From sequence record PQ471516.1: a DNA stretch of 64,000 nt. One strand, 5' to 3'. The notes under the pieces are model-generated. The model was not told the DNA's origin and made no database searches. It worked only from the letters and a program-made list of their open reading frames with translations. A program made the position numbers and the translations under genes. Positions 33,050 through 34,078 of the stretch are shown here, piece after piece. The stretch is from Escherichia phage Turkey5. Position 1 is the first letter of the stretch, and each line of letters begins with the position of its first letter.

Positions 33050-33354
33050 GGGCCATTAGCTCACGGTGGTTAGAGCAAACGACTCATCGACAATGGTGAC
33101 TTTCATCAGTAATGGTGATTGAAAAACTGGATGAATTCAGGGAAATCTTAACACGTAATGGTGATGACAATCCTGAGCCAAGCCCAATAAGCGTATTGGG
33201 AAGGTGCAGAGACTAGATGGTACAGTACGTTCTTACTGTGTAATACATCATTAGCGTCCGGCATCCCTATGGGATGATGATATAGTCCGTACTATTGTGA
33301 AAACTATAGATTATACGAATCGTTAGGTACTGTGTTCGACTCACAGATGGCTCA
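33050..33354 (+). tRNA. tRNA with anticodon CAT (Ile2 or Met) interrupted by a group I intron
   Basis: 5' exon 33050-33087: acceptor gggccat, D-arm, anticodon stem aacga, loop ctcat; 3' exon 33318-33354: aa + tcgtt, T-arm ctgtg-ttcgact-cacag, acceptor atggctc. Confidence 0.7.
33088..33317 (+). mobile_element. group I self-splicing intron in the tRNA anticodon loop
   Basis: Exon ends in U (P1 ucau can pair with intron guga); core gaaggtgcagagactagatgg and gatatagtcc resemble recalled Azoarcus/Tetrahymena P7-region sequences (GACUA...UAGUC); intron ends in G. Confidence 0.65.
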
Positions 33355-33373
33355 CAAACTTTGAAATAAAATA

Positions 33374-34078
33374 ATGAAAATAAAATTAGAATATCCATAC
33401 AGTAATGATTGGAAGAATGGGTATATACAGATAAACCCTGAAGGTAGAAGAACTGTAATACTTTATAATTCTCCAACTGATAGAAGCAGTACTCAATATG
33501 CTAGATATCTATTAGCAGTAAAAGAAGGTAGATATTTAACTGAGTCTGAAGAAGCAGACCACATTGATAATGATTTCACAAATGATGATTTGTCTAATTT
33601 ACAAATACTTCATGTTGATGAACATCGTTATAAAACACATAAGAATGGAGTACAAGCACGATATGATTCATTTGTATGTGCTTGTTGTAATACGGAATTT
33701 TCCCGTAGACATACTAAAGTGAAATCATATACAAAATATTGTAGTGTTGAGTGTTCACAAAAAATGGTCAAGCCTCCGTCAAATACAAAGGGTGGTGAAA
33801 CATCAGTTGATTATGAAAAGGTAAAAGAATATATTAACCAAGGTTTGTTAGATACTGAAATTGCTAAAATAATGAATATTAGCAAAGGTTCCGTACTAAA
33901 TTATAGAACCAAAAATAATATACCATCAAAACATTTTGAGAAAGTAAGGATATTAGAAGATAATATTACTGAGATCAGAAAACGTTTGACAGATGGTGAG
34001 AAGAAGGTTAAGATATATGAAAGTTATGGTGTTTCGAAGAATGTATTTGCTAGGTTTTTAAAACGCCATAATATGTAA
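33374..34078 (+). CDS. HNH homing endonuclease
   Basis: ADHIDNDFTNDDLSNLQILHVDEH matches the HNH motif; CxxC...C...C zinc knuckle; C-terminal helix-turn-helix-like region. Confidence 0.75.
   Translation: MKIKLEYPYSNDWKNGYIQINPEGRRTVILYNSPTDRSSTQYARYLLAVKEGRYLTESEEADHIDNDFTNDDLSNLQILHVDEHRYKTHKNGVQARYDSFVCACCNTEFSRRHTKVKSYTKYCSVECSQKMVKPPSNTKGGETSVDYEKVKEYINQGLLDTEIAKIMNISKGSVLNYRTKNNIPSKHFEKVRILEDNITEIRKRLTDGEKKVKIYESYGVSKNVFARFLKRHNM

Follow-up and report, generated by a model that had tools for sequence, protein, structure and literature searches.

The segment 33088-33317 of the window, by which we mean the whole 64,000-nucleotide stretch of Escherichia phage Turkey5 analysed here (PQ471516.1), is a group I intron that splits a tRNA(CAU) gene between positions 36 and 37, and a gene for a putative HNH endonuclease lies a short way behind it on the same strand. 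The overall best explanation, to which we give a probability of about 0.8, is that an intron-split, functional tRNA(CAU) and a separate HNH element have converged in a hypervariable cassette slot. On this account the window comes from an Asteriusvirus-like jumbo coliphage with the tRNA(CAU) gene inside its tRNA cluster. The features of the locus, in coordinates of the window, are as follows.

33045-34166, no strand: cassette of tRNA(CAU), intron, HNH gene and tRNA-Asn (local blastn against JNE01)
33050-33087, + strand: 5' exon of tRNA(CAU), with the 5' sides of the acceptor and anticodon stems, the D-arm and loop positions 32-36 (CUCAU)
33088-33317, + strand: ORF-less group I intron, IA2-like, 230 nt (Rfam RF00028, P1-P9 model, absence from WPEC5-type alleles)
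33096-33099, + strand: internal guide GUGA, which pairs as P1 with the exon letters UCAU (33084-33087); the 5' splice site carries the pair U33087·G33096
33103-33118, + strand: P2 hairpin of 6 bp with GUAA tetraloop; compensatory changes in 5 of 6 pairs, 100% of cells paired
33127-33205, + strand: P3 5' strand (33127-33133) and P4-P5-P5a-P6-P6a domain; P4, P5/P5a and P6a covary
33211-33215, + strand: P7 5' strand GACUA, pairing with UAGUC at 33283-33287; invariant in 9 of 9 sequences, matching the Rfam consensus
33216-33249, + strand: extended P7-P3' hairpin, P7.1/P7.2-like; outer stem 33216-19/33246-49, inner stem 33222-27/33234-39
33255-33309, + strand: P3 3' strand (33255-33261), P8 (33264-33274), J8/7, P7 3' strand (33283-33287) and P9 (33292-33309)
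33317-33317, + strand: terminal omega-G at the 3' splice site, followed by tRNA A37
33318-33355, + strand: 3' exon of tRNA(CAU), with A37 and A38, the 3' sides of the anticodon and acceptor stems, the variable loop, the T-arm and the discriminator A
33374-34078, + strand: free-standing gene of the HNH_3 homing-endonuclease type (predicted), 234 aa, with N-terminal HNH, 4-Cys motif and two C-terminal HTH domains
34086-34160, + strand: tRNA-Asn(GTT) at the 3' end of the variable cassette (ARAGORN and Rfam)

A tRNA gene interrupted in its anticodon loop

The 5' half of the tRNA reads GGGCCAT/TA/GCTC...GAGC/A/AACGA/CTCAT (33050-33087) and the 3' half AA/TCGTT/AGGTA/CTGTG-TTCGACT-CACAG/ATGGCTC (33318-33354), followed by the discriminator A at 33355 and no encoded CCA. 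Joined by removal of the intron, 33050-33087 and 33318-33355 make a 76-nt cloverleaf that ARAGORN reads as tRNA(cat), with the 7-bp acceptor, D, anticodon and T arms all present. A default ARAGORN run over the window did not detect the split gene, and the intron mode of the same program, which expects introns at the canonical position 37/38, detected it but misread the anticodon as acg. The uninterrupted homologue is annotated as a tRNA in Escherichia phage WPEC5 and other phages, and the acceptor and T stems are still paired when coliphage and Klebsiella-phage alleles are compared, substitutions notwithstanding. A G2·U71 pair was also observed in the acceptor stem of the window copy.

Matches to this tRNA were found in 5,424 of 5,426 E. 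coli genomes, and the sampled rows were all annotated as tRNA-Ile; the matches have 84% identity over nt 1-49, and the single sequence examined (L007) carries CAT. The joined tRNA contains the acceptor pairs C4-G69 and C5-G68, which work in E. coli has identified as TilS determinants, and AUA makes up 17.6% of the Ile codons across the ORFs of the window. Judged by similarity and the two acceptor pairs, the gene is more likely to encode tRNA-Ile2, which would be lysidine-modified and read AUA, than tRNA-Met.

The intron is exactly 230 nt long, begins after U36 (33087) and ends with G33317, after which the tRNA resumes at A37. Since the allele of WPEC5 lacks the intron and is contiguous at CTCAT/AATCGTT (the slash marks the insertion point), the point of insertion is unambiguous. 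The Rfam model Intron_gpI (RF00028) matches over its full length (1-253) with 95.1 bits and an E-value of 3e-23, the gathering score being 50, thus far above chance, and homologous introns reach 84-104 bits against the same model. A sequence-only reading of this DNA had proposed a group I intron in a CAT-anticodon tRNA gene, inserted after anticodon position 36 behind a U that pairs with a GUGA guide, ending in G and carrying P7 strands GACUA...UAGUC; everything it said of the sequence is correct, positions included, and the covariance-model search and the comparison with an intron-less homologue that it had called for both bear it out. No ORF of 40 aa or more was found on the intron strand. 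Two other delimitations were tried and rejected: the Rfam placement of P1 at 32996-33020, upstream of the tRNA, would make the 5' exon an insertion and is at odds with the covarying UCAU/GUGA pairing, and an enlarged intron containing the HNH gene conflicts with the 3' exon, which follows immediately after G33317.

A manual P1-P9 model comprising 62 pairs was scored on nine homologues, with partner-slid helices serving as controls. Under this model 95.1% of cells are paired and 32 of the 62 pairs show compensatory changes, against 30-45% paired and 2-6 compensatory pairs in the controls. The U·G pair at the 5' splice site is present in all nine sequences, and the two inner pairs of P1 covary between UCAU/GUGA and the CGAU/GUCG of Vibrio terminase introns. 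Compensatory changes also affect 7 of 10 pairs in the 34-nt hairpin at 33216-33249, and the intron-final G is kept in all five tRNA-resident copies. P3 and P7 form the core pseudoknot, and as both are invariant, covariation neither supports nor contradicts them. In P9, positions 33296/33305 form a U·U mismatch in the window, where TH47, L016 and L030 have A-U. The single-sequence minimum free energy (MFE) of the intron is barely better than that of shuffled sequences (z = -1.5), as expected for a pseudoknotted ribozyme, and thus lends no independent support.

From this conservation we infer guanosine-dependent self-splicing and a working tRNA. The tRNA cluster would be transcribed as a precursor in which the intron folds into P1-P9 together with the P7.1-like hairpin; exogenous guanosine would attack after U33087, at the U·G pair of P1, and the freed 3'-OH of U36 would then attack after the omega-G at 33317, so that the CUCAUAA anticodon loop is restored. 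Trimming of the tRNA ends and addition of CCA would fall to host enzymes.

Alternatively, the split gene might be a decaying relic, either an intron that does not splice or a tRNA pseudogene that persists in a non-essential region. The U·U mismatch in P9, the G2·U71 pair and the lost CCA could be read in this way, each of them being tolerable but possibly a sign of slight decay, and so could the weak MFE z-score and the closest genome, JNE01, which lacks the cassette and contains only a degenerate tRNA(CAU)-like sequence. However, the helices are kept by compensatory substitutions between E. coli and Klebsiella phage copies, the exon stems covary too, the core motifs are invariant, and nearly identical copies (99%) were found in TH47, a 179-kb metagenome contig and two SRA assemblies, which makes decay a very improbable account.

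The core of the intron has 67-78% identity with introns in the terminase (terL) genes of Vibrio phages, and the intron has 73-75% identity with a chromosomal tRNA(CAU) intron of Alteromonadaceae bacterium Bs31, which occupies the same 36/37 site. It can also be aligned throughout with introns I2 and I3 in orf142 of Staphylococcus phage Twort, and the orf142 introns carry an insertion at topologically the same place as the P7-P3' hairpin. Subgroup IC3 is defined by a compact core without helices between P7 and P3'; the covarying hairpin found there in the window intron, together with nearest relatives that are phage introns, led us to reject this Azoarcus-type assignment. The likeness to the Azoarcus and Tetrahymena introns noted in the earlier reading thus holds for the universal core motifs but not for the type, the kin being small ORF-less phage introns. 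As for IA2, the insertion is correctly placed and Twort I2/I3 are alignable, but it folds as one extended hairpin and not clearly as P7.1 plus P7.2. By sequence and architecture, then, the intron is best grouped with the small ORF-less phage introns. Searches of IMG/VR with the 5' junction pattern CGACTCAT-N6-10-GTGACTTTCA gave a single chance match in a coding region, and those with a P3-P4 string gave one relative in a protein-coding gene, adding zero tRNA-resident copies.

The HNH gene behind the 3' exon

The ORF at 33374-34078 starts 18 nt past the discriminator and 56 nt past the end of the intron, thus it lies outside the intron as a free-standing gene beyond 33355, in agreement with the first description. 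Its protein matches phrog_14913 with an E-value of 1e-56, and PF13392 is matched by 25 of 32 homologues (best E 2.4e-9). Across all 32, D62, H63 and N75 of the HNH motif (D-H ... N ... H/N, in a beta-beta-alpha-metal fold) are invariant, as are C102, C105, C123 and C127. In searches of the window protein itself against Pfam and NCBIfam, HNH was absent at E<=0.01 and only sub-threshold HTH matches appeared. The AF2 model has a pLDDT of 88, and its best structural match in the PDB is I-HmuI (1u3e; Foldseek E 2.4e-3, probability 1.00, 157 aligned columns); PDB sequence searches, whether started from the protein or from its family profile, gave no significant match (I-HmuI, E 0.22). The HNH call is therefore based on PHROGs, the Pfam matches of the homologues, the motif and the fold search, which confirm indirectly, from sequence and predicted structure, that the product is an I-HmuI-like HNH_3 endonuclease. 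No obvious Shine-Dalgarno sequence precedes the ORF, and no terminator was found between the intron-bearing tRNA and the HNH gene on their common strand. The gene appears to be promoterless and would rely on upstream transcription.

Homologues of the HNH protein (53-91% identity) are encoded next to a tRNA(CAU) or tRNA(CAU)-like gene in all nine distinct contexts examined, with the intron present or absent. The tRNA(CAU) neighbours of the family comprise at least nine different bodies, whose sole common sequence is the anticodon loop CTCATAA. In the window, TH47, RaK2, K64-1, L016, L021 and L030 the HNH gene is followed by a tRNA-Asn gene; the proposal that the HNH gene follows tRNA-Asn rather than tRNA(CAU) was nevertheless rejected, for L018, L022, L024, L025, CBB and fHe-Yen9-04 have no adjoining tRNA-Asn. 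On the evidence of these genomic neighbourhoods, the family goes with tRNA(CAU) genes rather than with the intron, and the gene in the window may be regarded as a separate selfish element from a family specialised on tRNA(CAU) neighbourhoods.

Alleles of the cassette and possible routes of spread

Comparison with the closest genome places the intron and the HNH gene in a variable cassette. In JNE01 the cassette is replaced by a 738-bp segment in which the degenerate tRNA(CAU)-like sequence accompanies another HNH gene; local blastn gave 98.9% and 96.7% identity for the two flanks but showed no relation between the interiors. Against WPEC5, the window has 98% identity until exactly 33087 and just 84.9% in exon 2. 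We read this break and the JNE01 swap as a footprint of recombination. Across related genomes all four combinations of the two elements were found: intron and HNH gene together in the window, TH47, L016, L017 and L030; the intron without an HNH gene of the 33374-34078 family in Muenster, KP13-7, RCIP0023 and phiKp_21; the HNH gene without the intron in RaK2, K64-1, L015, L018 and L021; and neither of them in WPEC5 and others. Intron and HNH gene thus do not co-occur regularly across genomes, and the existence of all four combinations indicates two independent elements converging on one gene. The sequence-only reading had suggested a composite or collaborating mobile unit, and as an obligate composite this is contradicted by the same four combinations. 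Other HNH genes occupy the same place: an unrelated second HNH_3 gene lies 22 nt behind another intron-bearing tRNA(CAU) in OU509535 and L029, and altogether four different HNH lineages were found in the slot beside tRNA(CAU). No intron-less copy of the OU509535-type tRNA body was found among phages. In JNE01, fHe-Yen9-04 and L025, degenerate tRNA(CAU)-like sequences adjoin other HNH genes.

We therefore favour an account in which the intron and the HNH gene would have been gained and lost independently, both converging on the conserved tRNA(CAU) in a hypervariable cassette slot. During mixed infections, breaks made by the HNH protein probably drag the cassette, and the intron with it, into sibling genomes by gene conversion, that is, by homing in trans. 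The patchy distribution, the replacement of the cassette and the identity breaks are indirect signs that the HNH protein may cut or nick specific sites and so favour the inheritance of its own gene. With the RaK2-type HNH gene beside an uninterrupted tRNA(CAU), protection must come from something other than the intron if the anticodon loop is the target.

A stricter form of collaborative homing would have the HNH protein cut intron-less tRNA(CAU) genes at or near the insertion site, the intron immunise its own genome, and repair copy both elements as a mobile unit of two parts. The intron, which lacks an ORF, and the free-standing endonuclease gene do adjoin one host gene, separated by 56 nt of a common strand without a terminator, and the exact coincidence of the WPEC5 identity break with the splice site, the tRNA(CAU) bodies that share only CTCATAA beside the HNH family and the unrelated HNH_3 gene in OU509535 and L029 all fit, as do published precedents (PMC3984707, PMC2790892). 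However, the HNH gene stands beside an uninterrupted tRNA(CAU) in RaK2, K64-1, L015, L018, L021, L024 and CBB, thus the intron is unnecessary for self-protection there, and Muenster-type phages carry the intron without an HNH gene of this family. Adjacency is also uninformative about the cut site, given that T4 SegB recognises a T-psi-C motif rather than the anticodon loop. On balance we consider this strict form possible but unlikely.

A broader proposal, which we put forward tentatively and hold to be rather unlikely as well, is that tRNA(CAU) of jumbo phages serves as a landing pad, where several HNH lineages would recognise CAU anticodon stem-loop DNA and where the intron, inserted at exactly this place and disrupting the site, would have been favoured by selection for the immunity it gives. 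If this were true, the locus would be the first collaborative-homing system on an RNA gene in a virus, and the degenerate tRNA(CAU)-like sequences of JNE01, fHe-Yen9-04 and L025 would be scars or decoys.

The intron could instead have spread between tRNA(CAU) genes by reverse splicing into RNA followed by reverse transcription and recombination, or by exchange of whole cassettes, the HNH gene being an unrelated neighbour at a hot spot. The same intron occupies 36/37 in the Alteromonadaceae chromosome and in three phage tRNA(CAU) bodies (the window and Muenster types as against OU509535), these bodies share little exon sequence outside CGACTCAT/AATCG, and UCAU is the sole guide requirement. The four HNH lineages in one slot likewise suggest a general hot spot. 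Against this, we know of no demonstration that reverse splicing has fixed introns in phage genomes, and chance is hard to invoke for an unrelated neighbour that adjoins tRNA(CAU) in nine of nine contexts, some of them without tRNA-Asn and with other synteny. Spread by this route with a bystander HNH gene therefore seems improbable, and independent gain of the two elements, with HNH breaks acting in trans, remains our preferred reading.

Significance and comparison with known systems

In the literature searched, which covered few subscription journals, we found no phage-encoded tRNA described as carrying a group I intron. All phage group I introns described there lie in protein-coding genes, those of bacteria mainly in genes for tRNA and rRNA, and a review describes phage introns as tending toward conserved protein genes and bacterial introns toward tRNA and rRNA genes (PMC3984707). 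The intron lineage described here crosses this divide, with close relatives in terminase genes of phages, in a tRNA(CAU) gene on a bacterial chromosome and in phage tRNA(CAU) genes. Both selfish elements at the locus are nonetheless ordinary; it is their host gene that is unusual, and no new mechanism is implied. Split in its anticodon loop, the tRNA gene is missed by standard tRNA finders, as it was in all four annotated Klebsiella phage records, and both tRNA inventories of jumbo phages and analyses of codon supply will therefore undercount a tRNA that probably decodes AUA. The four intron/HNH combinations, the four HNH lineages and the cassette swaps between genomes of 97-99% identity form a natural allele set, ready for use in tests of whether homing, trans or collaborative, acts on an RNA gene.

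Bacterial group I introns in anticodon loops are known from Azoarcus tRNA-Ile(CAU), from cyanobacterial tRNA-Leu and tRNA-fMet, and from tRNA-Arg(CCU), there at 36/37, and the Azoarcus intron is likewise inserted at 36/37. The window intron resembles them in being ORF-less, about 200-250 nt long and placed in the anticodon loop, with a short P1 (3-4 bp) flanked by the anticodon stem, and its host is likewise a CAU tRNA, probably of the Ile2 type. It differs from them in its phage-encoded host gene, its covarying P7-P3' hairpin and its phage-intron kin, and it is not of type IC3, to which the Azoarcus intron belongs (PMC3895272). The IA-type bacterial tRNA introns have been surveyed recently (2026), in complete bacterial genomes only (PMC13011429). 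To the same sequence family belong the small ORF-less IA2-type phage introns, namely Twort orf142 I1-I3 and those of Staphylococcus Kayvirus, the Vibrio terminase and cyanophage psbA, which share P2 with its GUAA loop, the P7-P3' insertion, J8/7 and P9; these interrupt protein-coding genes, whereas the window intron interrupts a tRNA gene, and its peripheral element is one extended hairpin, not clearly two.

For the pairing of intron and endonuclease, the nearest parallels are T4 MobE with the nrdB intron, a case of trans homing, and the collaborative homing of free-standing endonucleases with ORF-less introns (PMC2790892, PMC3984707). There as here a free-standing HNH gene adjoins a gene whose intron cannot mobilise itself, and the window locus shows mosaic identity breaks of a kind resembling co-conversion. 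Unlike nrdB, the putative target gene in the window is a tRNA gene and not protein-coding, and the HNH gene also lies beside intron-less alleles. T4 SegB, a GIY-YIG endonuclease, favours the inheritance of itself and of the adjoining tRNA genes, and its site includes a conserved tRNA motif (PMC2330249); it is likewise encoded by a free-standing gene among phage tRNA genes. However, the window gene is predicted to be of the HNH_3 and not the GIY-YIG type, its family tracks one anticodon class (CAU) whereas SegB is directed to a T-psi-C stem-loop common to many tRNAs, and the SegB case involves no intron whereas the window locus does. I-HmuI of Bacillus phage SPO1 (PDB 1u3e), an HNH nicking enzyme encoded by an intron, can be aligned with the window protein in the HNH_3 motif region, and both are modelled or known as elongated modular monomers with a C-terminal HTH; the window protein differs by an extra 4-Cys motif, a second HTH and an identity of only about 15%, and its gene is free-standing, whereas that of I-HmuI lies within its intron.

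A group I intron within a phage tRNA(CAU) gene

In this Asteriusvirus-like jumbo coliphage, direct reading of 33050-33087 and 33318-33355 confirmed the two tRNA halves described in the sequence-only reading. ARAGORN folded the joined halves into a tRNA cloverleaf of 76 nt whose anticodon is CAT, and by default it called seven other tRNAs in the window and not the split gene.

Features of the locus (window positions)
33050-33087: tRNA(CAU) 5' exon, reading GGGCCAT-TA-GCTC...GAGC-A-AACGA-CTCAT
33088-33317: group I intron, 230 nt, Rfam group I intron model
33216-33249: hairpin between P7 and P3' of the intron, 34 nt, 7 of 10 pairs with compensatory changes
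33318-33355: tRNA(CAU) 3' exon, reading AA-TCGTT-AGGTA-CTGTG-TTCGACT-CACAG-ATGGCTC-A
33374-34078: HNH ORF, 234 aa, phrog_14913

The proposed group I intron was borne out by the Rfam covariance model, which it matches at 95.1 bits (gathering score 50, E 3e-23). Rfam placed P1 upstream of the tRNA, taking the 5' exon as an insertion there, and this placement was rejected as an artefact. P1 is formed by exon UCAU (33084-33087) and GUGA (33096-33099), with U33087·G33096 at the splice site, and the last intron base is G33317. A 62-pair P1-P9 model was written by hand on an alignment of nine sequences: five copies resident in tRNA genes, three introns from Vibrio phage terminase genes and one from IMG/VR. 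Standard pairs filled 95.1% of cells, both sides changed in 32 pairs, and none of 500 shuffles reached the real pairing values; when partners were slid by 1-3 columns, pairing was only 30-45% and compensatory pairs only 2-6. Covariation was seen in P1, P2, P4, P5/P5a, P6a, P8 and P9; P3, P6 and P7 showed no change or one-sided variation only (one P3 pair), and covariation is therefore uninformative on these three helices. The single-sequence MFE was likewise uninformative (z = -1.5), and P9 of the window copy carries a U·U mismatch where the related phage TH47 and two further relatives (L016, L030) have A-U. The intron at 36/37 of this phage tRNA(CAU) is a structurally intact group I intron, and self-splicing would restore the tRNA.

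The intron shows presence/absence polymorphism. Comparison with intron-less homologues found the same tRNA uninterrupted, and annotated as tRNA-Met, in Escherichia phage WPEC5 and some eight further coliphages; this allele reads ...AACGACTCATAATCGTT..., which places the insertion unambiguously between U36 and A37. By local blastn, identity between the window and WPEC5 is 98.0% up to exactly 33087 and drops to 84.9% in exon 2, with no further match until 34327. The intron-containing allele occurs, 88-91% identical, in Klebsiella phages Muenster, KP13-7, RCIP0023 and phiKp_21, and is unannotated in all of these records.

With moderate confidence, the split gene is putatively tRNA-Ile2, because the spliced tRNA sequence is matched in 5,424 of the 5,426 complete genomes of E. 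coli (tRNA-Ile annotation on every sampled match, CAT in the one fetched), contains C4-G69 and C5-G68, which are TilS determinants, and stands in a window (G+C 35.5%) where 17.6% of the Ile codons in ORFs are AUA. Its acceptor stem has G2·U71, and CCA is not encoded.

An HNH family associated with tRNA(CAU) rather than with the intron

The HNH endonuclease call for 33374-34078 held, since residues 1-149 match phrog_14913 'HNH endonuclease' (E 1e-56) and the phage homing endonuclease I-HmuI is the best PDB match (E 2.4e-3, probability 1.00) to the AlphaFold model (mean pLDDT 88). Pfam on the protein itself returned HTH hits only, all sub-threshold; PF13392 HNH_3 was matched by 25 of 32 homologues. 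Invariant positions of the family are D62, H63, N75 and four cysteines, and the 90 C-terminal residues form two HTH units. We found no terminator-like site between tRNA and ORF, and no clear ribosome-binding site upstream of the latter. The gene is free-standing and I-HmuI-like.

Contexts of HNH homologues (L-numbers, fetched loci)
Window, TH47, L016, L017, L030: tRNA(CAU) with intron
RaK2, K64-1, L015: tRNA(CAU) without intron, different tRNA body
L018, L019, L021: tRNA(CAU) with long variable arm
L022, L023: tRNA(CAU) downstream of HNH, not upstream
L024: tRNA(CAU) without intron, upstream
L025, L026: degenerate tRNA(CAU)-like sequence, read in L025 only
Pectobacterium phage CBB: tRNA(CAU) without intron, upstream
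Yersinia phage fHe-Yen9-04: degenerate tRNA(CAU)-like sequence

Homologues at 53-91% identity occur in nine distinct contexts, and in each of these the HNH gene adjoins either tRNA(CAU) or a degenerate sequence resembling it; tRNA-Asn is an inconstant neighbour. Muenster-type phages have the intron without the window-type HNH; OU509535 and L029 show the intron within a third tRNA(CAU) body, and the HNH_3 gene 22 nt behind it is a different one, of 141 aa (Pfam E 4e-19), that resembles the window protein at motif level only; WPEC5 has neither intron nor HNH gene here, and a NUMOD3-type HNH after tRNA-Asn. The window HNH family goes with tRNA(CAU) and not with the intron; intron and HNH gene are distributed independently.

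The locus is a hypervariable cassette slot. TH47 is 95% identical to the window across it. In vB_EcoM_JNE01, 98% identical outside this locus, the cassette 33045-34166 (1,122 bp) is swapped, between flanks 96.7-98.9% identical, for 738 bp with yet another HNH gene and a degenerate tRNA(CAU)-like sequence. We infer that the HNH protein is a homing endonuclease whose target lies in or close to tRNA(CAU) genes. Strict collaborative homing, in which the HNH target would be the intron insertion site and the intron would confer immunity, is possible, but it is weakened because RaK2-type phages carry the HNH gene beside an uninterrupted tRNA(CAU).

Other features of the tRNA clusters

Degenerate tRNA(CAT)-like sequences (GGCCCT...AGGGCCACCA, CTCATAA loop) lie at L025 ~834-910, L027 ~806-883 (fHe-Yen9-04) and L070 ~3713-3788 (JNE01), each adjoining an HNH endonuclease gene and called by no tRNA detector. 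Relatives also hold 87-92-nt tRNA(CAT) genes with a long variable arm (L018 2362-2453, L021 1394-1480, L070 833-919 in JNE01), two of the three directly upstream of HNH homologues. In WPEC5 (L001 ~2655-2738) and Muenster (L002 2902-2985), the place of the window's ordinary 74-75-nt tRNA-Asn is taken by an 84-nt 'tRNA-Asn(GTT)' that has a long variable arm and is linked to a NUMOD3-type HNH gene; such a class-II-like Asn tRNA is unusual. The clusters with the HNH contexts of fHe-Yen9-04 (L027 261-336) and CBB (L028 45-117) include an amber-suppressor-like tRNA(CTA), annotated Sup or Pyl.

Within the window, at least 10 paralogous 53-63-aa ORFs starting M-(T/S)-(H/Y)-(D/E)-E-W stand in tandem at 29119-30368 and 31893-32379, interleaved with tRNA genes. 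Seven ORFs of about 120-155 aa, scattered over the tRNA region (28704, 32410, 35770, 36641, 37092, 37489, 37878), have in common the C-terminal motif E-x-(F/Y)-(F)-Q-x-S-(L/T)-(V/I) and look like a paralogous family. Directly after tRNA-Ser(TGA), Rfam but not ARAGORN reports a tRNA-like sequence (31790-31868; 33.3 bits, gathering score 29) whose D and anticodon regions look aberrant, and two clearly different tRNA-Thr(TGT) genes lie 6 nt apart (35601-35674, 35681-35754).

Lineage of the intron and comparison with known systems

The resemblance to Azoarcus and Tetrahymena introns suggested earlier reduced to universal core motifs, the nearer matches being phage introns. By sensitive blastn, the core is 70-80% identical to ORF-less introns of Vibrio phage terminase genes, and was also found in Staphylococcus Kayvirus and Twort introns, a cyanophage psbA intron and others. 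In Vibrio phages 1.193.O, R16F and 1.187.O at least three group I introns of this family interrupt the large-terminase gene, leaving it in four or five pieces, with a GIY-YIG gene beside one of these loci. A scan with two invariant core strings, run on 100,044 genomes of bacteria and archaea, yielded 38 loci, three within tRNA genes.

tRNA-resident loci from the scan
Alteromonadaceae bacterium Bs31: tRNA(CAU), same 36/37 site, same GUGA guide, 73-75% identical
Elusimicrobia MAG: tRNA(CAU), 36/37 site, 53-55% identical
Thiotrichaceae MAG: tRNA-Asp, 35/36 site

In the identity matrix, the phage tRNA introns are about equidistant from the terminase introns of Vibrio phages and the tRNA(CAU) intron found in bacteria. 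The Bs31 tRNA is followed by a 547-aa ORF (L052 557-2200) with an N-terminus similar, as judged by eye, to that of a GHKL (histidine-kinase-like) ATPase, which would fit an island integrated beside the tRNA.

A hairpin between P7 and P3' is not a feature of IC3 introns, and by it the window intron differs from those of the Azoarcus type. The Azoarcus intron belongs to subgroup IC3 (PMC3895272). Twort orf142 I2 and I3 can be aligned end to end with the window intron, and they too have extra sequence inserted between P7 and P3'. A survey published in 2026 and confined to bacterial genomes recorded 333 tRNA group I introns, 81% of them IC; introns in tRNA-Ile2 of Pseudomonadota are among the IA minority (PMC13011429). 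A 2014 review placed phage introns in protein genes and bacterial introns mostly in tRNA and rRNA genes, and we found no phage-encoded tRNA described as carrying a group I intron in full-text literature, a scope with most subscription journals outside it, so that priority is not guaranteed. The practical consequence is a tRNA missed by annotation, and the locus is a good natural experimental system. In mechanism, the locus is in keeping with the group I introns and free-standing homing endonucleases already known. Breaks made by the HNH protein would probably mobilise adjoining DNA, intron included, in parallel with the mobilisation of the T4 nrdB intron through MobE (PMC2790892) and of neighbouring DNA in the T4 tRNA region through SegB (PMC2330249).
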